A stretch of DNA of 64,000 nucleotides, taken from assembly GCF_041146345.1 (NCBI RefSeq), contig NW_027191406.1, positions 868,001 to 932,000 on the forward strand. The letters are read 5' to 3'. The position numbers and the translations under genes are program-made. Under the pieces are notes generated by a model that had not been told where the DNA came from, made no database searches, and saw only the letters and a program-made list of their open reading frames with translations. Positions 26,762 to 40,495 of the stretch are shown piece after piece. Positions within the stretch are counted from its first letter, which is position 1, and every line of letters starts with the position of its first letter. This stretch comes from Neodothiora populina. Lineage: Eukaryota.

Positions 26762-28652
26762 TTAGCTCCAGGGAGCGTCAAAGGAGCTGCTAGACCAGTT
26801 GGTGTCCATGTTATATGAGTTGACGAAGTCTTGATCCGCCGGCATCGACATGCCATCATCCCATTGCATCGTCCTGTAGCTGTTGTTGAAGTCTTCCAAG
26901 CCAGTGTTGCTTGGCATGCTGCATGCTTGTTGTTCGCCTACCATGGACTGCTGCGAAGAGTCGCCAGCGCCGAAGTCCATGCCGTGGTTTGAGCCGTCAT
27001 TGCTGCTGACAAGACCGCTGCTGAAGTCGGGCATCAGTGCTTCCCAATTGTAGCTGTGTATGCCAGAAGTCTTGTCTTGCTGGAACATGTTGGGCGGGCT
27101 CTGCTCCAGGGGAGACTGGGAATGCACCGACTCGCCGACATTGGACATCATGGGCTGCGTCTGGAAGAGTGGCTGAGACACGCCGAAATCATGCAGGGAC
27201 ATGTCTTTGGTCGACGAATTTGAAGACTCGGTCGGAAGTACCATCATCGTATTCTCCTGCGACGAGAACACGGGCATGCTCCAGCGATTCGGCGAGCTGG
27301 TATTCGTGTCGAAGGTCGCGCCGAATGCATTGTTGTCAGCAGCAAAGTCGTTACCATAGTCGAAGCCTGTCAGTGGCGCTTGGCTGTCCATCGAGTACTG
27401 GGCATCGAAGCCGCTCAAGTCATCGACACGAGGGAGGTCGTCGATTTCAGATATGGTGCCGGAGGAAGCGTTCGTGAGGGCGGGCTGGGCGTCCAGACTG
27501 CCCGGATCAAGTCTATTCCAGTCCATGCTGGCCCAAAAGTCCGTCGTCTTAGTGTTGTCAAAGTCCATGGCAGACGTAGGTACAGAGCCAGGCAGGGAGA
27601 AGGCTGACGGGTCCGTGGAAGATGTTGCAATGGACATTCCACTCTGAGCACTAGGAAAGCCAAACTCTTGATACATGGTCGAATTGCTGGCGACACTTGT
27701 AGAGGCTTCCGACGACATGTACGAGGAGCTCTCGATGGGCATATTGATATCGAACGGAGACTGATGGCTCATCGATTGATCCAGAGTTGGCGATGATTGC
27801 TTTGACTGGATTTTCACAGGCTCGACGGGTGTCGGCTGAACAGCGGCAGCTGTCAGAGATAAAGGTTGCCAGGTCATGGAAGACTTGGCCCTCAGAGACG
27901 CCAGACTGTCTACAGAGCGGCGGGAGATGTTCTGACCGCTATGGGCGGTGTGAGAGCGGGGCAGCTTGTATGGAGCACCGCTTTCGTGAGCGGCGTTGTT
28001 GTGGCGATGAGCAGGCTTGTGATGACCATTCGAGTACATGGCAAGGTGGCCTTCGGACGAGCGGGTGGTCAGACGAGGTTTTGACTTGGGAATGGTCGAT
28101 ATGGCTTTAGTAGGACTTTCGCCGCGAGGTTCAGGAGACTCTGTACTGTGGGAGGCACAGGTGCACTTGCCGCCATGAGGACAACAGCAGTGATGATGGT
28201 CGGCAGAAGTCTCTTCGGGAACAGGGCCCAGTTCATGTACCGAGGCATGAATCTCGTCCGTGTCAGGAGTGCTACTGCCGGGAGGGGTGGTCGAGCCAGT
28301 GCAGCCATTGGCAGCGACACCGGCGGCTTTGGCCTCTGCTTCGCGCAGGTGGATGCACTTTTCCTTGGGGTGCGGCTTCTCGCCACAATCGCACTTGACG
28401 TGAGCCGATCTCTTCTTGCGCTCGGAGCGACAATGAGGGCACTGTGTTACCGGTCGGCCCTTCTTGGGCACAAAGGTGAGTTCTCGGTCTGTAGATTTGG
28501 AAGAATTAGTTTTGTGAAGTGATGCGGACTCGACAGAACAAGAGTAAGCTTGTTGCAGAAAGCTACTCACCAACATGGGTACATCCGCTCACGCGGTGTC
28601 CCTTGAGGCACGAGGCGCATGCCCATTTTGTGCCATCTTCTTTGACTACCAT
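26762..28652 (-). CDS. Copper-fist transcription factor (Ace1/Haa1/Cuf1-like); 2 exons (28652-28571, 28488-26762)
   Basis: Spliced N-terminus MVVKEDGTKWACASCLKGHRVSGCTHV/DRELTFVPKKGRPVTQCPHCR...HVKCDCG is a copper-fist domain; second Cys/His cluster HHHCCCPHGGKCTC; acidic C-terminus. Intron 28570-28489 (GTGAGT...CTAAT...CAG). Confidence 0.93.
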
Positions 28653-31600
28653 GCCGGGAAGGAGGACAGATCAACGCGATGAGTGGGCGCGCGGGCGATT
28701 CTTTTACCGGGTAATGAAAATAGGCTGGTTTCGGGCTTATACCAGCAAAGCGGTCTGGTTTTTGTTGTTGTTGTTGTTGTTGTTGTTTCTTCTGGTGAGA
28801 GAAACAAGAGTGATTGGAAAAGAGAAGATGTGGACTGTATTCTACAATCGCAGTGGGTATCTTTGATGCACCAAAATATATATGAGGATTCCGTTTTAAC
28901 GCCAGAGTATAATGGGTTTTGGTATGGTGGTGATGGTGATGAGGATGATGACGGTGATGTTGGGAACGAGGCGACGAGAGTGACAAGACTGACAAGACGA
29001 AACTTGACAATAGCAGAAAGCGTAGAGCGTAGAGCGAGCGGGCCTGGCACAGCGAATGCTGGCCTTTCGATGGCCGTATGAACTAAATTTGGCCAACCAA
29101 AACAGTGACTATCCCTTCTCTCCCAGGTTGATGTAGAGAAGTGGGAAGGAGGAGAAAGAATGCGAATGCGGCGGGACATGCGGTTGCCAATATGGACTTG
29201 CCCGCCAGTACAAAGTTAGTGTGCTCGTGCTTGCCGGATCGAGGCACGGACTTTTGTTCACGACCTCGACCTGATGCGATTGGCCGACGCTTAATTGGCT
29301 TGACCTTGAAGAGGTCTCCTCGGATTCGTCTACACTCTCCGTTCTCCTACCACTACGGAGGTACTACTGATGATACTGTATCTTCCGAGGTCACGTTTAG
29401 CCTCAACCCACAACACGGTACTGATAATGCAAATGGTGCATCTCTCGTCGCAACCCATAGCAGTGTACTGTACTGCAGCGACTGTATGTACTCCATCACA
29501 AGTACTGACCGTACAATACAATACAATCCTCGGACGGCTCTTCCGACTTCTTGCCGAGACATGTCAGAAGCAAAGCAGAGAAACACATCATAGCCAGTCT
29601 TTACATGTACTGTACTGTACAAAATGCAGTCAAAGCAAGCATTTATCCATGCATATACAATTAGTTCATTGTCATTCATGTATTCGTCGCTGATTGAACA
29701 GACCCGTAAACGTAATGCACCGTTAATCGCCAATGAGGGGGCTCAAAATAAGGTACTGTACTGTGCAGTAATGTACACGCCCGCGTAAAGACCAGAAGCG
29801 TACATAACGTGTGCTGTGACCACGTTTTGGCAGCACTTGCATGGAGATCCGGACGGGCTTGCGCGCCTGTGTAAGGTGTGTTGTTTACCTTACGGTGGGG
29901 GTTCGACGAGATACGATGCTCATTTGTACAGGAAGGTACTGTATGTACTGACTGTACTTCGAAGAGGCGCAGTGCATGCGCATGCAATGCTGTCGCATCA
30001 ATCGATCTCGTGCGATTCGACTTCAATCAACTCTACTCTGACAATTACCTACACTCTAAATCCATCCCGTACGCACACATTGCCCCAGCTTGGTTAGGCA
30101 TATCAACGCTCACACCGGTGGTCGTGTACACAAACTAGATTGTGCCCCAGACTTTTTGCGGTTTACGGCCAGGCACAACAGCTTCCCAATCCGAAATCGT
30201 CATTTTGTCACTAACAGAGCACACCGCCAGAAATTCCGATTCAGACAACTCCAAGGGTCCTGCTGCGGCAGTGCCACAATCACCTCTCCTGGAAGGACCC
30301 TCTTCCTCGTCATTTTAATATCCCACCATTAATCTACCGGGCTGAGACTCTCGTCATATCCTGTATTTCGATCAGCCAGGAGTTGATGGGAAAGAGAGGC
30401 ACAAGCCCATTGAAGCGCTGACCAAATAGTCACTGGGTTTCCAGTCCTTCCTCGAAAGAGCAATTGTTCACATGCACACAAAGAGGCTCGTGCATTGGAT
30501 TGTGCTTTCTGCCTTTCACCTCACAAGAGAACGTCGTTCATGCTCGACACTGCTCTTGGCATCTTGTCGATCTCGCCCTTCCCACATCTGCTGCAGCACT
30601 CGTCATTCGCAGGAATCGAACCAACGCTAAAGTAAGCAAGAAATAATAATGCAGTATGATGTTGACTTTTTGGCATCGTTTATCCCATCATTGAACTCCG
30701 GCTGCCCCGATCAAAACAAAGATGCGCTTAGTCCAGTCGTCGTCGCCGCCTCCACCTATGGAAACTCACATAAGGATAATATTACGCTTAGGCAAACCCC
30801 ACTCTTGTAAGCGACCACTAACGAAGTCGAGATTAGCCCTGATATAATCGGAGATCTGTTTTCCCTCCCCTTACGAGCCCCGATTTTTCTTCTTAGTCGT
30901 CTCGCTTTCGTAAGTCCAAACACGACAGGTCAGGAGTTCGCTTTCGCAGAGGGGGGCGTGTCGGGCATGATACAAGGGGCTTCGCCACCAGTGTTTGGTA
31001 AGATAGGCATGCCACAAAATGCAATTTATCCGTAGAGACAGACCCTTATGCCGGATCCCACGGATCTGCATGGTTATAGTGCACTTGTAGGTCGAGTAGT
31101 AAACAAAGCAACGAACGAGGTGCAAAACCGGGAAAAGCACAACAGTCTCATTACTCTTGTCCACACCCCCCTCGGTCCAGACCGGTCCTCTGCCCACTTG
31201 TTCGGGTGCACGCTCAAATTTGATAGATTGTTTTGTTTGATCTCCATTACCTTTTTCTTGGGGAGACATTGGAGAGCTGGGGTAGAGCAAGATCCGAAAT
31301 GTGCAATGCAGTGTCTCGACGTGCTCTGATCACTCGTTTAGGCATCTACTGTAGAGCAGTGCAAGATAGGTAAATACGCAGCGTGAACCCCCGGAGACAC
31401 TCTTCGTATCTCGGACCCCACACCGTAGCCTCCTCAATAACAACAACAGACTGTAGGTAATCCGTCCACCCTCAACAGTACAGCTCTGTCGACGTGTCAT
31501 ACATGCCTAGCCTGCAAACTTGTTGTGCTAATTCCTTCATCTGCAAAGACGATGTCTATGAACGGGTTTTGAGCCGCGATTCTGCCCCTCTTGCCCCCTC

Positions 31601-32045
31601 TCCGCCGGCATCCGGGGGGCCTACTATGCATTATGGTGGCTATCTAAGGATTGCCTTCTTCTGTAACGGCGTGCGCCTCCGCAGGCTACTATAGTAGGAT
31701 CATCCCAAGTGTCACTCATGTGATGCGTGAAAACGATCACGGTGGTCATCTTTCCTTAGTGCAAGCAGGCTTCGTATAGGTGCTATCTATTCCTGATGTG
31801 GGTGATGGTGTTGAGCCTTGCTGTCTAGTGTGTTCTTGATGGGCAGTGCTATTCAGATTGGACGTCGGAGTTCCAATATTCACTGTCTTGTTGTTCTATG
31901 CCAATGTGGTACCGTTTTGTCAAGACATGGTATATTCATAGGTTTTATGATATTATACAGGTGTTTCCCTTCACCTAGCTTTTACAAACGGCTTTTTGTT
32001 TTGTTTCCGTCGAGTTCTATTCCTAGAGCGAGCTGATTATCAGTC

Positions 32046-32594
32046 TCATGCAGGCTTGACACCCTTGTAGATGGCAGCAATGCCATTAGTCAAATCCTCC
32101 TCGCCTTGCAATCCTGCGTGTTGGAGTTAACGTCGGAAATGGTGACGTACGTGTTGCGGTCATAGTTAATGTTTATATAGCGTAGTCGAGCATGCGAAAG
32201 GCAATGTCGCCGCTACCGCCTACGATGTCGAGGTACAAAGTAGTCTATCTAAAGATGAGGTGGTGTATGCCGAGGGACATAAGGTCGTTCATTAAGGTAT
32301 GTCGTAGGAACTAGCGATTAAGGAGAAGACGCCGGCGGCTAGAGAAGAGAAGAGCAGGTTAAACACAGGCCTAGCTTACTTTTCGCTTGCTATGTTGAGT
32401 GTTACCTTTAGACTTTTCTAAGAACTTGTTAAGCGTCTCGAAGCCGGAATGTGTCGTCTTTTTATGCTGCCTGTATTACTCTATCTTATCTTATGGCCAC
32501 TGCTGCTCCGCTAGACACCAAAAGGTCGTGAATCTACATCTTAGATGAGAGACAGGAGGTGACAGCCTGAATCACTTGGTAAGAAGGTGGCTAT
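32046..32594 (-). pseudogene. COQ5: Relic of the ubiquinone-biosynthesis C-methyltransferase gene COQ5 (UbiE family), with stops, frameshifts and internal deletions
   Basis: Collinear blocks: KTTHSGFETL (32460-32431), intron 32405-32339, AGVFSLIASSYD, MNDLMSLGIHHL (32292-32257), LDIVGGSGDIAFRMLDYA (32232-32179), VTISDVN, and DLTNGIAAIYKGVKPA* (32096-32046). These correspond to fungal Coq5 TTHFGF, VFSSVA.SYD.MNDLMSLGIHRLWK, LDIAGGTGDIAFR and NLTGGIAAIHKG.K. Confidence 0.9.
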
Positions 32595-32913
32595 TTGTGT
32601 GTAGAGGGAGGCGTGTTTCAAGTATTTCAAGTATTATAGGCGGCGAGAAGATCAAGCAGATCACCGCCGAACTTTACTTTGGCAGAACCTTGACGCCAAG
32701 CATCTTCCTATGCAAGATTGAGTTACGGGTAGATCTTGCTTGACTCGCGCTACTGGCACTGGCTTAGACCGACGCTACCCGTCTACTCCGCCTGGGGTGA
32801 ATGGTCGATCCCTCGGTTGGTATTGTACCTTGTACACAGAACTCATGTATGACCTGCATCTTAGGTGTGTTATGTTTGATGAGGTGTTTCCCTCTCTTCT
32901 GAATCATGTAATC

Positions 32914-34448
32914 ATGTCCTCGTTTACGCTGTCGAGGCTGACAACTAAGTCACTGCGGCGTACAAATGCGTACTTATACTATTGCCGACGATGGAACTCG
33001 GTATCACAGCGTCCAGGTTCAGATCGGTATTTCTACCTACCTATGATACCGATAACATTGACTGATCCAGACAGAGTCCATTTCCCAGGAGCGGTGAACA
33101 GCAAATTCACCAGGAACCTCGACTTTATCCGACCGGATGAGAAGTCGGCGCTGCCCACCTATCGCATTCTCGACCAAGATGGTGTCGTCGTCGATAAGAT
33201 CAGGGAGCCGCCTGACATTAGTGATGGAGAAGTACTGAAGATGTATAAAGACATGATCACAGGTATTGTATTCTATGTTGATCGGATGCTATTCATCTCG
33301 CTGATTTGATCCACAGTCAGTATTATGGACTTGATCATGTTCGATGCTCAGAGGCAAGGCAGGATCAGCTTCTACATGGTAAGTCTCTCCTCTCACCAAC
33401 GATATCACATCACCAGTCAAAGTGTTTCACGAACTAATATCTGTAGGTTTCTGCAGGCGAGGAAGGCATAGCTATAGGTTCAGCATCCGCCCTCGGCTCG
33501 GACGACCCAATCTTCGCGCAGTACCGTGAAGCAGGAATCTTCCAATACAGAGGCTACACGCCTTCGGACTTCATGAACCAGCTGTACGCGAACAAGCACG
33601 ATCCAGGTCTAGGACGCAACATGCCAGTGCACTACGGAAGCAGCAAACTGCACATCCACACCATCAGCTCACCTCTCGCCACCCAGATCCCGCAAGCGAG
33701 CGGCGCCGCCTACGCCGTCAAGATGCAAAACGCCCTCGACGCGTCCAGCAGAGAGCCCAGGTGTGTAGCTTGCTATTTCGGCGAGGGAGCCGCGAGCGAA
33801 GGCGATTTCCACGCCGCGCTCAACATCGCCGCCACGCGCTCGTGTCCTGTCATCTTCATCTGTCGCAATAACGGGTATGCCATCTCGACGCCGACGCTGG
33901 AGCAGTATCGCGGTGACGGAATAGCGTCTCGTGGTATTGGATACGGGATCGAGACGATTCGTGTCGATGGCAATGATGTGTTGGCAGTGCGTGAAGTCAC
34001 CAAGAAAGCGAGAGAGATGTGCTTGCGGAATGGTGGCAAGCCCGTGCTCATCGAAGCTATGAGCTATCGAGTCTCGCACCACAGTACGTCGGATGACTCG
34101 TTCGCTTATCGCGCAAAGGTCGAGGTGGAAGACTGGAAGCGTAGGGATAATCCCATCACGCGCCTGAGGAAGTGGATGGAGACGAAAGGGTTGTGGAACG
34201 AGGACAAGGAAAAGGAGCTGAGGAGTAGTGTCAGGAAGGAAGTACTAGAAGCGTTCAGGACTGCCGAGAAAGGAAAAAGGCCGTCGTTGAGATACATGAT
34301 GGAAGGGGTCTACGAGGAAATGACTGAAGAGCAACGAGAACAGATGAAGGAACTCCGAGAGACCATGGAGAGATACCCCAGCGAGTACGACGTCAGCGAA
34401 TTTGAGGATGGACTTGACGGGCTCAAGGATAGTTCATACAACAAGTAG
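32914..34448 (+). CDS. BCKDHA: Branched-chain 2-oxo-acid dehydrogenase E1 alpha subunit, mitochondrial; 4 exons (32914-33026, 33075-33262, 33317-33378, 33447-34448)
   Basis: AQRQGRISFYM/VSAGEEG, GRNMPVHYGS, TPP-binding motif FGEGAASEGDFHAALN...CRNNGYAISTP, and YRVSHHSTSDDS. Arg-rich presequence. Confidence 0.95.
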
Positions 34449-34520
34449 ACCATCCACCAGCAGTATATGAAAGACAAGTGCAAAATCCACTTTGCAATTG
34501 CGAAACTCCTATGAATTTTT

Positions 34521-37038
34521 CTAATCCTCCATTCCAAAATCATTGACTGCACCCAAGAACTCCCCACGAACTCCGCCCTCTTGCGCCAATAACTCATCGA
34601 CGTCGATGCCTCCAGAGGTAAGATAACGCTCGCTGACGCCGACATTGATCCTCTGCTTCAACAGATCATTGAGCTCCCATCGAAGCGCCTTGGTCTCATC
34701 TTTAGTCATAGACCTGGCCTCGACCTCCTTCCTCTTCCTGCCTGCTCCACGACCCCTCTTACCAGGCGCCTCCTGCTGAAACTCCTCGGAGTCATAGTCG
34801 ACGCCCAAATCCTCGGCCGCTTCCCGGAGGAAATCGTTCTCGCTGTTCTTCTTCTCCTTTGCGATCGTCGTGTCCGCCAGCTTCTTAGCCAGCGTGGCTC
34901 TGGGCTTCAAACGGCCGACGACGCGGCGGTCGATGTCCAGGGTGCGGATAAAGAAGCCATTCTTGCCCTTTTCGCCTGTCTCCGCTGCTGTCGCTGCGGC
35001 GGACGTTGCGTGGACTTTGGCGACCAAGCGCCTGGTTCCGGCGACTTCCTCGGGTCCACAGATGAGGATTGAAGAGCCTTTGGTTCCTGCACGCGCAGTA
35101 CGTCCTGAGCGATGCACATAGGAGTCTGCGGTACGGGGTAGATGATAATGAACGACGAGTTGGACATTGGGAATGTCGAGACCGCGGGCGGCGACATCGG
35201 TGGCGATCAGGATGTTACTTGCGTTGGCTGTGCCCTTTGCTGCTGTGAAGCGCTCTATCGACCGCATGCGTGCCTTTTGCGCCATCTGTGAGTGCAGAGG
35301 GAGCACAGGTAGCTGCAGGTTCTGGAGGAACGGGGTCAGGCGGCGAACCGCTGAGATGGAATTGACAAAGACAAGGGCCTTCTGGTTTGCGTGTAGTAGC
35401 AGAAGCGCGTAGAGGAATAGATCCTGCAATGACGGTCAATTCGAAATGCTTTTGTGACTTTTCAGACAATGTTCTTACCTTTTCGGTTCCTGCACATTCA
35501 ACAAGTCCCTCCCTGAGGTTCGAGGCCATCTGGCTCAGAGGGTTGACATCCACAAATTTGGGCTTCTCCTCACGGAAGTTGAGCTTCTTCAAAAGATACT
35601 CCATGCTCTGCTTCTCATCCATAAGGCCGCTACCAAACTTTTGCTTGCCTGCCAGCTTCTGTTGTAGTCCTTTATGGAATGTCGCAGAGAAGACGAGCGT
35701 TTGTCTCTGCCTGATCTCCTCTTCGGTGATTTCGAATTCCTCCTCGTCGGCATCGGCGCCCAGTACTTGATCTTTGCGATCGAGAACATTGATGATCTCT
35801 TCAACCTCCTTGAAGTGACCCTGACTCAAAAGTCTATCCGCCTCATCGATGACAAGAAATTGAATCTGCTTCAGCCACTTCAAGATACCGTGTCCACCGC
35901 TGATGACTTCCCAAAGACGTCCAGGAGTGCCAATGACGATATCTGCCGTCTGCAACAGTCTTTGTTGCTTGAGGATCGAGAGACCGCCAGTTAGGCATGC
36001 AATAGATGGCCCTTGACCACCAAGTCTAGAACATACTTCATTCATGTGCGCTGTGATCTGGTGGGCAAGTTCTCGTGTAGGCGAGAGAATGAGAGCCAGA
36101 GCTGGAGTCCGGGTCTTTTCCTCCTCGGTCGCTGGCTTTTTGGCGTTCTTACGGATTGCCTGCAACTCGAGAAATCTCTCAATCACAGGGATACCAAAAG
36201 CGAGCGTTTTTCCAGAACCAGTGCTGGCCTTGCCAATTACATCATGTCCAGCAAGAACCTCTGGTATGGCAGCTCGCTGAATAGGTGTAGGATTCGCAAA
36301 CTGAAGTTTCGACAAAGAAGAAAGAGTTTCGTCTGATAAGTTCAAAGGACGCCATGCGCTGATGTCGGCACCTTCTTCCTCGTCATCCTCGAGCAGGTCT
36401 CCGATCGCAGCAAAAGACATTCCATTCTCAGCTTGAGCATTAGAGGCCTTTTTAGTCTCGGCTTTAGCATCTTTCTTGGGCTCCTTCTTAGCTTTTGGTT
36501 CTTTCTTTTCTTTCTTTTCCTTCTTCTCCTTCTGTTTCTTCTCCGGCTTCTTCACTTCCTTGGCTTGCTCGGGATCATATTCTCTAGCAGGATGAGGCGT
36601 GACAGTCTCCACCTCCAACGTAGATTTGGTTTCTACTGGGGTCGCCACTTCATCACTTGCTTCCTCATCACCAAATCCAGACCATTCCTCTGCGTCAGAG
36701 TTTGCGCCCTCGCCATCAGGATCGAAAGGGTCCTTTGACTTTGAGTCACCTTCGCCGGCTTTCTTCAATCTGTCACCAGTTGCACGGTACGAGATCTTGC
36801 CACCATCTTTGACAATTTCAACATCATCGATTTCTTCCAATCCATAGAAGCCCTCGAAGTCGTCCAAGCGATCTGGCATTTGAACTTCCTTCCATGCCAA
36901 TTCTTCAAGTCGCACATTTTTGGGTGCGACTGGTGAAGCTCCTGCCGCTTTATCTGTATGTTCTACCTTACGGCGCTTGCTGCCTTCTGTCGCAGCACCC
37001 TTGGTTGGCAACGCTCTTTTCTTCTGAGATGCAGCCAT
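34521..37038 (-). CDS. MAK5: DEAD-box RNA helicase Mak5 (DDX24); 2 exons (37038-35479, 35423-34521)
   Basis: PTPIQ, ASTGSGKTLAF, PTRELA, GTPGRL, DEADRLL, SAT, TDVAARGLDIP and YVHRSGRTARAG; N-terminal GFYGLEEID motif. Intron 35478-35424. Confidence 0.93.
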
Positions 37039-37246
37039 GCTTATTGTTTGAATTACAGAATGGATATGCAGATTTCTTGACGGCGAAGTCGAAACGCGGA
37101 TAGCAGAATAAAAAAGTTCAAGGGTCCAGCTCTGGGGCGGATTAACTTCGGCGTGTGGACGGGGCTACAGTAGAGCCTCTTTTCTTTAGATCTATGCGAA
37201 TTGTCACAATACTAGCACTGATCTTGAATATACGTTTGCCACAAGT
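37039..37246. promoter_or_regulatory. Putative bidirectional promoter for MAK5 and TRM7
   Basis: 208 nt between divergent ATGs; contains AAAAAAGTTCA (RRPE-like) at about 37110-37120 and TACAGTA at 37166. Confidence 0.5.
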
Positions 37247-38371
37247 ATGGGAAAATCATCCAAGGACAAACGAGACGCTTACTATCGCCTCGCCAAAGAG
37301 CAAGGGTGGCGTGCTCGTAGTGCATTCAAATTGCTACAGCTTGACGAAGAATTCAATCTTTTCGAGGATGTCACCAGAGTAGTGGATCTCTGCGCTGCGC
37401 CTGGAAGTTGGAGTCAAGTTCTATCTAGAGTCTTGATCAAGGGCGAGAAGATTGGTCGCGCAGGCTGGGAAGACAAGCAGGCCAGGGAGAAGCTTGCTCT
37501 GCACGGACGAGCCCAAGACTCGGATATCACAAACGATATGGCTACTGTTGAAATCAGTGAACAAGAAGCCAAGCCGAGGAAAGATGTGAGAATTGTTTCT
37601 ATCGATCTGCAACCAATGTCTCCTTTAGAAGGCATTGTAACAATGCGAGCCGACATCACTCATCCATCAACTATCCCACGACTACTTCAAGCCCTGGACC
37701 CGGACACTTACGATCCAGCAGCGGTCACAGCCTCGCACCCAGTTGACCTTGTTATCTCAGATGGAGCACCGGACGTCACTGGTCTCCATGACTTGGACAC
37801 GTATGTTCAATCTCAGCTCATCTGGGCAGCACTAAACCTTGCTCTGTGTGTGCTCAAGCCTGGTGGCAAGTTCGTGGCCAAGATCTTCCGTGGCAAGGAT
37901 GTCGACCTGCTCTATGCGCAACTCAAGATTGTCTTTGAACGGGTACGAGTCGCCAAACCTCGTAGCAGTCGTGCCAGTAGTGTCGAAGCTTTTGTTGTGT
38001 GCACAGGCTTCTGTCCCCCCAAGGGATTTAAGGCCAGCCTGGACAACCCTCTGGGCGCCGGGGCTAAGCTTCAGCCTGCACCGGGAACACAGGCGAACAA
38101 GGCAGCGCCGGTGCGTGTCGTACGTCCCGACGGTATCACCGAGCTCGATATGGGATCAGATGATGAGTATGACATTGAGGAACAGCGCTGGATTGCCCCC
38201 TTTCTAGCTTGCGGAGACCTGTCTGCTTACGACGCAGACGCCTCGTATCATCTCCCGAAGGACCACGTGGTGTTAGATCCTGTGCAGCCACCAACGGCTC
38301 CTCCCTACAAGAAGGCTTTGGAGAATCGGAAAGCAGCAGGTGGTGCGTACGGCAAGACCAAGCTAGGCTGA
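37247..38371 (+). CDS. TRM7: tRNA (C32/G34) 2'-O-ribose methyltransferase Trm7 (FtsJ family); intronless
   Basis: [83 protein letters not shown] and [10 protein letters not shown]. Confidence 0.96.
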
Positions 38372-40495
38372 AGCCTAATCGTACTCCGCAGAAAAAAAAG
38401 ATCTGTCGTTTCATGCAGCTTATTGCAGTTTTATATCAAAAACCTAAGTAGCGCTCGAGAGTTCGGTACCCACCAAGCCGCTTCGAACGTAAGACAGAGT
38501 AGCGGCTACCTTAATCCGCTGGCACTATCGAAGCCTGACTAGTCTGACGCCATTGGGGTTGTCTCGAACGATCCTGCTTGTGGTCAATTGATGCCTGTAC
38601 TACCATCCAGACAGCCGCAGAAATAGACTTCCGCAGGGCGGTTTGTAACACAATAACGCGCGCTTCAAAGTACTACATACCGCGATGCGGCACCGAAGCG
38701 CGATGTGTAGACTGAAGCCTTCGCTGGCGACCTCACCACAAGTACGATGCCGCACAAACATCGATTGACATGACCTGTTCACAAGCTTCACTTGGCTGTG
38801 AGTATCTGGCTTGGAGAAGCAGGGATTACAAACACCTCAGACCGCTGGTTCTAGAGCAAGGGAGGAGCAGGCGGAGAACTACCCGCGCATAGCGGCGGCA
38901 TTGCGCAACTCAAGATTCCAGATCCTCCCGAACCCACGGTACACCATCCGCACCTATCGTCTGATGTGCATACGAACGACAGAAAACTGGCCACTTCATG
39001 CCACGTGAAGACAAGATCGAGGAGAAGGGGCGAATTCGACACGTTAATACCTCTACTTCACAATCTCATCACAGAAGTTTGGACAGGCAAAGCACAACAG
39101 CAGGAATATAAGTCGGATTGTACTTGTACGCTTCTCCCACGTAGAGCAGACAGATCTCGCATATACCTTGCTATCCCGACACGCCCTAACCTAAAAGTAA
39201 CTTGCTTTACCTTATTTTACTCCCGTTTGTCTTATCAACAAGTACCTGAGCCACAGCACCTTACTTGACTTGACCTTATCAACAAAGTACCCACCTAGCT
39301 ACCTAATGTACATTAGCTCACCAGACCACGAGGTACCGCTCCCTTGCCTGCCTTATACAAGTACAAAGTCACCGTGCTATACAGAGCATTTCTCCCCAGA
39401 CTAACGGGAACCCCGCCAGTTAGTCACTTTCGTAAGCCCACCAGTTCAGCCAGCCTGCAAGCCAGCCAAACGAGTAAACCAAGAAAAAAACGCTTGTATA
39501 TTGAACTTCCTTCACCCTTCGTAGACGGAAAAGAAACGAAATATGAAATCAAAAAGCTTGGCGCTCCAGCTTGCTTCACACATCTACGATGTGGCGCAGG
39601 AGGGACGTGTACAGATACCAATTATTGCTGCTGTGCATATGTGTATGCGTGCACGCATGAAGACGCATTGCTAGTAGTAGTGATAGAAGCAGCAGCAGCA
39701 GCAGCAGCAGGTCGGCGAATCCCGTGCGTGCTGCTTCTGCCTCTACTGCTTCTGCTTCTGCTTTTGCGTCTCTTCATGCACACGATAGCATGACGCATGC
39801 ATGCATGCACCATGTCTTCACGTCCATCTATCGTGCATGTAATCGCGCTTGTGAACGCACCGTATGACTCCCATTTGTCAGGTGCTCCGCAGAAGCAGAA
39901 GAGATAGAGAGAGATATGTTGCTTTTCAGCGCACACGTCTTTCGTTGCTGTTCTGATATTGTATGTAGCTCGCTTTGGCTTGGCTTAGGTGGGGTGGGGT
40001 TGGGCTAGATTGTTGTGTGCTGTACGAGTGGTGTTTGATGTATATTAATTCTACAATTTTTTGATTCTCTTTCTGTAAAATATACTGTATGTATGTACTG
40101 TAGGCATTCGTGTTCACTGCTTCCGTTGATCAATTGATCAATCCGTTTATTGAATCAATCAATTCTCGTCATATCGGAAATAAAGGTAAAGATTGAGACT
40201 CTTGATTGCTTCAGAGTACAGTTTCTATTGGAGTATACTAGGTAACTATCTAGCTATGCTGGTTCTGTTTTCCTTCTCCGTGATCGATCTTATCTTTCCT
40301 TCCTTTTTGTCTGGGTAATCTGTGTAATCTGGGTATGGTAATAATAACATCATCTCTTTTCTCGTCCATCGTGATCAATACATTTTCTTTGCATTCTTCT
40401 CCTCTGTGTCTCGTCCAGCGGAGATCAGGAGGGCTGTTTGGGTGGGTATCAGATTTCGGCCGTTGTAATCGTTATATGAACAAAAGAAAAATAAA

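Follow-up and report, generated by a model that had tools for sequence, protein, structure and literature searches.

A wrecked COQ5 gene beside BCKDHA in Neodothiora populina, probably the ancestral copy of a duplicated gene, is still transcribed and spliced

The remains of a COQ5 gene lie on the minus strand of an apparently empty intergenic stretch in Neodothiora populina, head-to-head with a gene for a BCKDHA-type E1 subunit, and they raise the question of what became of COQ5 in this fungus and of why its traces are found in this place. The locus was analysed within a window of 64,000 nucleotides, by which the whole stretch of DNA is meant. The reading that we favour, with a probability of roughly 0.8, is that the original COQ5 stood at its ancestral place beside the BCKDHA-type E1 gene and was duplicated, and that the relic is this old copy, now dead and still transcribed and spliced.

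The minus strand between 32046 and 32594 is confirmed as a wrecked fungal COQ5 gene (UbiE-family C-methyltransferase) with all of its parts in order. When a single frame of the relic was searched with its stops read as X, the Pfam family PF01209 matched with an E-value of 5.2e-4 and 19.9 bits, which just misses the curated cut-off of 20.1, and the yeast Coq5 structure 4obw_A matched the same frame at 2.3e-5, so that similarity is seen both to the family profile and to a solved member of the family. Four fungal Coq5 proteins were also run against the 64-kb window by tblastn and gave colinear pieces spanning 32469–32052. P0004, the Coq5 of Talaromyces atroroseus, matched the relic at 2.9e-9 and 5.2e-4 and P0003 matched it at 1.6e-8, and none of the four proteins had a comparable match outside the relic within the window. 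Neither another COQ5-like sequence nor an internal repeat of the relic segment was seen in the window. On the DNA level, the relic matched orthologue COQ5 DNA in blastn at 4e-14. A piece of 45 residues around the relic motif retrieved 126 UbiE/Coq5 proteins at E≤10, P0004 among them, and PF01209 was present in 120 of the 120 matches listed. SAM-binding motif I is itself preserved as LDIVGGSGD at 32232–32206, aligned to LDIAGGTGD of 11 orthologues. Such similarity far exceeds what chance would give, and the COQ5 identity put forward in the preliminary description of this DNA is borne out by the PF01209, 4obw_A and tblastn matches.

Orthologues for comparison were taken from COQ5 loci on metagenome contigs, which had been found by means of an alignment of six fungal proteins. 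Fourteen of these loci (L001–L014) were of fungal type, being 58–81% identical to P0004 and mostly intron-bearing, and 66 others were 42–51% identical. Set against such sequences, the features that the preliminary description had listed are found on the minus strand where it had placed them, and they can be followed from a decayed start, ATA at 32594–32592, to a retained stop, TGA at 32048–32046. The ATA stands in a Kozak-like context, acacaaATAgcc, 137 nt ahead of the TTH block; in the nine orthologues examined the start codon lies about 40–55 codons ahead of that block, and the start was presumably lost by an ATG>ATA change. A presequence remnant on the minus strand, RCRFTTFWCLAEQQ, has its counterpart in the orthologues as YRCFSCSLRLAQEQ, and two in-frame TAA stops (32493–32491 and 32478–32476) lie between this remnant and the TTHSGF block. 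TTHSGFETL is read on the minus strand from 32457 onward, within an exon-1 block TTHSGFETLNKFLEKSK (32407–32457) that corresponds to TTHFGFETVPESAKESK in the orthologues. An intron of 67 nt with GT..AG ends occupies 32339–32405 at a position that is conserved in most orthologues, 10 of the 14 orthologue loci having an intron there as judged by a split match or an in-frame read-through insert. Directly after the intron comes AAGVFSLIASSYD, where exon 2 begins as (A)AGVFSLIASSYD (32301–32338), and the frame is continuous with that of exon 1 in the spliced form.

Downstream of the intron the blocks AAGVFSLIASSYD, MNDLMSLGIHHL, LDIVGGSGDIAFRMLDYA, NINYDRNTYVTISDVN and GEEDLTNGIAAIYKGVKPA extend up to the stop at 32048–32046. 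They are interrupted by a frameshifting +5 insertion within 32293–32300 (about 32294–32298), of which 3 letters at 32294 and 2 at 32298 are missing from the second copy of the gene that is described below. The stretch 32234–32292 holds MNDLMSLGIHHL, another +5 insertion and then IDYFV preceded by a stop; the stop is a TGG>TAG change at 32250, in place of Trp at a site at least 80% conserved in 11 orthologues, and a CAC>TAC change lies at 32242. Past a junction at which about 21 codons have been deleted stands the SAM-binding motif I block LDIVGGSGDIAFRMLDYAI (32176–32233), with GCA>GTA at 32222 and CAC>TAC at 32184. This is followed by a +1 insertion and by NINYDRNTYVTISDVNSN (32120–32175), which ends at the junction of a large deletion where about 131 codons, corresponding to P0004 residues 162–292, are missing. 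The C-terminal block AGL/QGEEDLTNGIAAIYKGVKPA (32049–32117), with a deletion of 4 codons between AGL and QGEEDLTNGIAAIYKGVKPA, carries CAC>TAC at 32069, where the second copy keeps C. The three His>Tyr changes (32242, 32184 and 32069) and the GCA>GTA change at 32222, which had been picked out beforehand against the Coq5 consensus, proved to be true departures at sites at least 80% conserved among 11 orthologues.

Taken together, the relic has lost its start, has gained stops and frameshifting indels and has had about 460 nt deleted, with no counterpart remaining for P0004 residues 104–124, 162–292 and 296–299. Compared with Saccharomyces cerevisiae Coq5 (PDB 4OBW/4OBX), which belongs to the PF01209 family, the blocks of the N-terminal half, the C-terminus and motif I (LDxxGGxGD) are recognisable, whereas the relic is without a start codon, contains stops and frameshifts and is short of about 131 core codons and about 25 others. 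Having neither a complete ORF nor the full methyltransferase core, it is a pseudogene of the UbiE/COQ5 family, without functional membership.

A second, longer copy of COQ5 exists. Three sequencing runs, X1, X2 and X3, were compared with 31200–34500 at 80% likeness. In X1, the probable source run, positions 1053–2344 of a second contig (record 2) are homologous to 31759–32747 on the minus strand. Five pieces of this record are colinear with the relic and its flanks and are about 86–94% alike, namely 31759–31797 (4 of 39 letters differ), 32039–32100 (9 of 62), 32262–32347 (10 of 86, together with 5 gap letters), 32484–32533 (7 of 50) and 32715–32747 (2 of 33). Beyond the gene itself, the shared unit takes in about 150 nt on the upstream side and about 290 nt on the downstream side, and it measures about 1.29 kb in record 2. 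The interval 32100–32262 is 625 nt long in the second copy vs 161 in the relic, and the 464-nt excess equals the relic deletions minus the insertions there, as deduced from the orthologues. The second copy is also free of the first +5 frameshift and has C, giving a His codon, at position 32069, where the relic has T, giving Tyr; only 4 of the differences between the copies were listed individually. Its DNA contig matches 9 nt into the 3' end of the intron, and across the intron and exon 1 it has 125 letters vs 136 in the relic.

The intron and non-coding flanks are accordingly common to both copies, as in an unprocessed duplicate. The proposal that the relic arose as a DNA-level copy and not as a retrocopy, which had been made on the retained intron, is strengthened both by the intron lying at the usual orthologue position and by the homology that runs into the non-coding flanks. 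Within the aligned pieces the likeness of the two copies is about 87%, whereas the identity of the relic to any orthologue is 0.55–0.735 over 321 aligned nt, and pairs of orthologues have a median identity of 0.72. Judged by these identities the duplication is lineage-specific, because the two copies are far more alike than the relic and any orthologue. The second copy is presumably intact and working, as suggested by its length, the lack of the +5 frameshift, the His codon and its presence in a cDNA-like run. As for its product, a protein search with the 144-residue relic frame had no match at E≤0.01, none of the matches listed for the 45-residue piece was close enough (the best was P0004, with 70 of 118 block residues identical), and a search with the C-terminal piece gave no candidate with three shared words. 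Of the two explanations that the preliminary description had offered for the dead gene, death after duplication or relocation agrees with the presence of a longer second copy in X1. The other, by which the lineage would have lost or replaced COQ5, is rejected because of that same copy.

The kind of mutation that the relic suffered was then considered, since RIP had been suggested as the cause. RIP requires a duplicated partner of sufficient length, and the relic has one, homologous over 31759–32747 and extending over about 1.29 kb in its own contig. A codon-anchored alignment was made of 321 relic nt with 11 orthologues, L007, L010 and L011 being dropped as near-duplicates of L006 and L002, and changes were counted at the 191 sites at which at least 80% of the orthologues agree. 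Relic-specific changes at these conserved sites numbered 29, made up of nine C>T, seven G>A, two T>C, two A>G and nine transversions. The 16 GC>AT transitions (C>T or G>A) among the 29 amount to an excess of the kind looked for under RIP, and they affect 15.7% of conserved G/C sites vs 4.5% of A/T sites for AT>GC transitions. C>T changes were found at 6 of 10 CpA sites vs 3 of the 37 C sites in other contexts (Fisher p=0.0013). The three His>Tyr changes named above are among these six, and the second copy confirms the change at 32069. No enrichment of G>A at TpG was found at the 80% threshold (1 of 8 vs 6 of 47, p=1). When CpA and TpG were pooled, p rose from 0.007 under the 80% threshold to 0.13 under 70%, and at 70% the CpA effect was itself weaker (6 of 14 vs 8 of 55, p=0.029).

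Dinucleotide indices gave a similarly divided picture. For the relic (32046–32594), TpA/ApT is 1.30, (CpA+TpG)/(ApC+GpT) is 0.96 and the composite is +0.35, vs 0.66, 1.23 and −0.57 for the whole window, and the three highest composite values among 631 sliding 989-nt windows all overlap the relic. By the stringent RIPper set of product >1.15, substrate ≤0.75 and composite >0, as quoted in PMC7882544, the product and composite of the relic pass and its substrate index of 0.96 fails. The GC content of the relic is 0.45–0.47 vs 0.49 in adjacent non-coding DNA. RIP can account neither for the nine transversions nor for the indels, of which there are six or more.

The same history of duplication followed by death may therefore be told without RIP, the changes then reflecting the ordinary GC>AT bias of relaxed sequence, and this is the alternative that survives best, falling somewhat short of an even chance. 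It draws on the single G>A among the eight TpG sites, on the missed substrate limit, on a GC content that is hardly lowered, on the nine transversions and many indels and on the small sample of only 16 GC>AT changes. What it leaves unexplained is that C>T is specific to CpA, that the composite index is positive and at the top of the 64-kb window and that a duplicated partner of about 1.3 kb is present, as RIP needs. RIP is described in PMC12543289 as targeting duplicated DNA in a CpA/TpG context that is its hallmark, and as being regarded as a cost to gene duplication. The same text, on RIP-hit duplicated genes of Neurospora crassa and other Pezizomycotina (PMC12543289), offers further points of likeness, in that a segment of about 1.3 kb is duplicated here too and the relic has an excess of C>T/G>A, a preference for CpA, TAG/TAA stops and positive product and composite indices. 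Unlike the RIP-hit duplicates covered there, the signature in the relic is light and one-sided, its C>T changes being limited to the coding strand, and it misses the stringent substrate index. What stands of the RIP proposal, which is moderately supported, is the GC>AT excess, the CpA>TpA preference on the coding strand and product and composite indices that are the highest in the window; TpG>TpA changes are not enriched, and the substrate limit, the barely lowered GC content, the transversions and several indels weigh against it. Light RIP probably contributed, at about even odds, with ordinary decay following.

Death by mutation did not silence the relic. Run X2 comes from the same sample as X1. 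Its record reads 'DNA?', and it is the joints in its contigs that suggest cDNA. Three GT..AG introns of BCKDHA (33026–33073, 33258–33311 and 33378–33445) are removed from its BCKDHA contig, and one loose end in the run resembles what we take to be a nanopore adapter. A relic transcript on the minus strand, 31589–32591, is represented in this cDNA-like run by two relic-exact contigs. Record 4, a minus-strand contig of 293 nt that matches the relic without a difference, has 32591–32406 joined to 32338–32232, and the joint 32338/32406 corresponds to removal of the 67-nt intron, whose ends on that strand are GT..AG. Record 3, of 640 nt and likewise without a difference, covers 32228–31589. Both contigs differ from the second copy and are therefore derived from the relic itself. 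They are shallow, at a depth of 2.3–2.7 in one sample, and depths were not used for ranking expression. In keeping with cDNA, X2 has no cover over the intergenic promoter at 32643–32864 or over 31200–31532; uncovered parts in X2 and X3 were not taken alone as evidence of silence. For the second copy, the match of the X2 contig ends at 32337, which is an exon boundary, and the X1 DNA contig continues to 32347, inside the intron; this fits with the transcript of the second copy being spliced as well. X3, from another study and under another organism label, contains 31886–32113 without any difference, so the relic did not arise from an assembly error in a single data set. No RNA runs containing window sequence were listed in the run search.

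The relic is thus still transcribed and spliced, as observed in one sample at shallow depth and in a run whose kind is deduced from joints. Relic-specific RNA-derived sequence, the mark of a transcribed pseudogene, is present, and like other transcribed pseudogenes the relic has its own exact spliced contigs in the cDNA-like run. This transcription and splicing had not been foreseen in the preliminary description. Most simply, expression of the relic is a by-product of the divergent promoter that it shares with BCKDHA. One may ask if the relic instead persists because its RNA, though non-coding, has a function, such as tuning the second COQ5 copy or the divergent promoter of BCKDHA, given that it is transcribed and correctly spliced and that an identical piece recurs in X3, the run of a second study. 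This is improbable, as transcription is expected from a promoter that selection keeps for BCKDHA, as the sequence has decayed without constraint, with 29 changes at 191 otherwise conserved sites in addition to the indels, and as the spliced relic RNA contains 16–22 stops per frame, its longest Met-initiated ORF being 41 aa. Little credence is likewise given to a combined account by which light RIP on the 1.3-kb duplication killed the ancestral copy and moved COQ5, with the relic being kept as a regulatory spliced non-coding RNA from the divergent promoter of BCKDHA.

The duplication presupposes that the second contig is a paralogue in this genome. It might also be the COQ5 of a contaminant, of another haplotype or of a co-sampled relative, since Logan contigs derive from a run and not from a curated genome and since depth is no copy number. 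This is very unlikely. Only two records in X1 fall on the 3.3-kb stretch 31200–34500, namely the window's own contig and record 2, which is 8825 nt long, and their contig depths are similar (34.9 for record 2 vs 32.2 for the window contig). A relative with a flank match of 90–94% should match BCKDHA too, and none did. The homology breaks off sharply at 31759 and 32747, with unlike sequence beyond both ends, and the 28 million letters of X1 are the size of one fungal genome.

Which of the two copies stands in the original place was approached through the neighbouring gene. This divergent neighbour, on the plus strand at 32914–34448 with a probable ATG at 32914, encodes a BCKDHA-type E1 alpha subunit of a 2-oxoacid dehydrogenase (PF00676 E1_dh, E 7e-84), and about 320 nt separate its probable ATG from the ATA of the relic. 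Window ORFs from 18–48 kb were compared with the COQ5 loci, and a locus was counted as informative if it had at least 2 kb upstream of COQ5, which held for 11 of the 14 fungal loci; L008, L009 and L010, with 590, 94 and 1 nt, were excluded. An intact COQ5 was found head-to-head with a BCKDHA homologue in 6 of the 11 informative loci (L001, L003, L004, L005, L013 and L014), and the last BCKDHA match in these six lay about 220–540 nt from the COQ5 ATG, vs about 320 nt in the window. L006 and L007, which look like one lineage, have the BCKDHA homologue about 8.6 kb upstream of COQ5. No BCKDHA near COQ5 was seen in L002 and L011, which look like one lineage that is closest to T. atroroseus, or in L012. 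Between the window and L003, the nearest orthologue locus, BCKDHA is 74% identical on the DNA level.

The head-to-head BCKDHA–COQ5 arrangement is common and presumably ancestral, and the relic occupies the place of COQ5 in it; on the six of 11 head-to-head loci the dead copy would sit at the ancestral syntenic position. The suggestion that this might be the ancestral locus, made on the short spacing to another mitochondrial gene, gains support from the synteny at these fungal loci. That the relic is a derived copy inserted beside BCKDHA and the other copy the original can practically be dismissed, adjacency not being universal, as L002/L011 and L012 attest, but the same spacing and orientation recurring in six separate loci and a chance insertion of a 1.3-kb copy at that exact position and orientation being very unlikely.

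The history that would account for these observations, in which COQ5 was duplicated away from its ancestral place beside BCKDHA, may be outlined as follows. A DNA segment of about 1.3 kb would have been copied elsewhere in the genome, carrying along with the gene and its intron a promoter part of about 150 nt and, on the 3' side, a flank of about 290 nt, and this duplication would have left the old copy redundant. The old copy would then have died through the ATG>ATA change, the gain of stops and two +5 insertions and one +1 insertion, and would have been shortened by about 460 nt, with most of the methyltransferase core gone. The C>T/G>A bias and the preference for CpA suggest light RIP on the duplicated pair, possibly in one or a few rounds, after which neutral decay would have set in. 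Since the splice signals would have survived, as would the promoter that also serves BCKDHA, the relic would still be transcribed and its intron spliced. The identity, the lesions, the synteny, the second copy with its flank homology and the spliced relic contig are observed directly, while the death of the old copy in favour of a working new one, the intactness of the second copy and RIP as the cause are inferred.

Unprocessed pseudogenes, relocation, RIP-like bias and retained transcription are all known phenomena, and no new process is invoked here. The relic resembles unprocessed pseudogenes and genes relocated by duplication with later loss of the ancestral copy (compare PMC11628664, on duplication and relocation in Neurospora), in that its intron and flanks went along in the copying and that synteny identifies the older copy, which is dead. 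It differs from RIP-hit duplicates (PMC12543289) in that one copy of the essential gene is evidently usable here, resulting in relocation and not in loss. From usual unprocessed pseudogenes it differs in that the gene is a mitochondrial housekeeping gene that is normally single-copy and in that its dead copy is still driven by an active promoter and spliced. No relevant report of a fungal COQ5 pseudogene was found in a limited literature search, by which absence from print is not established.

Knowledge of ubiquinone synthesis is unchanged by these results, and their value lies in how genes move and die. The locus provides a clean natural example of a single-copy housekeeping gene changing its chromosomal address, in which the conserved BCKDHA synteny distinguishes the old copy from the new and in which the killing mutations can be read directly by aligning the copies, since both are in one genome. 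RIP is regarded as a heavy penalty on gene duplication in the fungi that have it (PMC12543289), and an essential gene that was duplicated and kept one surviving copy therefore offers a useful case in which to test what becomes of such pairs. For annotation, support from RNA-seq is no proof of a coding gene, and more generally a dead gene can retain its promoter and splicing for long if a live gene next to it uses the same promoter.

The neighbourhood of the BCKDHA-COQ5 pair was evaluated by comparing positions 32914–38371 of the window with the fungal COQ5 loci L001, L006/L007 (which look like one lineage) and L014, all from metagenome contigs. In the window, as in L006/L007, a block composed of a DEAD-box helicase gene (34521–37164) and an FtsJ-type methyltransferase gene (37247–38371; PF01728) comes after BCKDHA, and the orientation of this block in the window is the inverse of that in L006. 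In L001 the same block comes after COQ5. The surrounding genes have been reshuffled, with the BCKDHA-COQ5 pair as the stable element.

The BCKDHA gene model was obtained from a contig of X2, a cDNA-like run of the same sample as the probable source run X1, and spans 32938–34500 on the plus strand with three short introns (33026–33073, 33258–33311 and 33378–33445). The probable ATG, at 32914, lies before the point where the contig begins, so the contig is probably incomplete at its 5′ end, and a 1-letter gap in it at 33202 is probably a read error. On the other side of the pair, the 3′ flank of the COQ5 relic (31797–32039) comprises 241 nt versus 74 letters in the second, longer COQ5 copy found in X1, and the difference of roughly 167 nt reflects either an insertion in the relic flank or a deletion in the second copy.

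Directly after the FtsJ-type gene, the stretch 38300–39800 ranked second within the window for the RIP composite index, with a maximum of +0.49 at 38900–39499, where TpA/ApT was 1.41. A search within the window for an internal repeat of this stretch found none. Elsewhere, a 604-aa ORF at 26762–28576 matched no Pfam family at E≤1e-5 and has homologues in L001, L005 and L014. It is adjoined by open frames on the minus strand (28567–29215) that carry a His-rich segment and nine consecutive Gln residues.

COQ5 was also located in L002 (8081–9102) and L011 (9168–10189), a lineage nearest to the Coq5 of Talaromyces atroroseus (81% identity). No homologues of window genes, BCKDHA included, were found within 8–10 kb of COQ5 in these two loci, and COQ5 may therefore have left its place beside BCKDHA in other fungi too, as an independent event.
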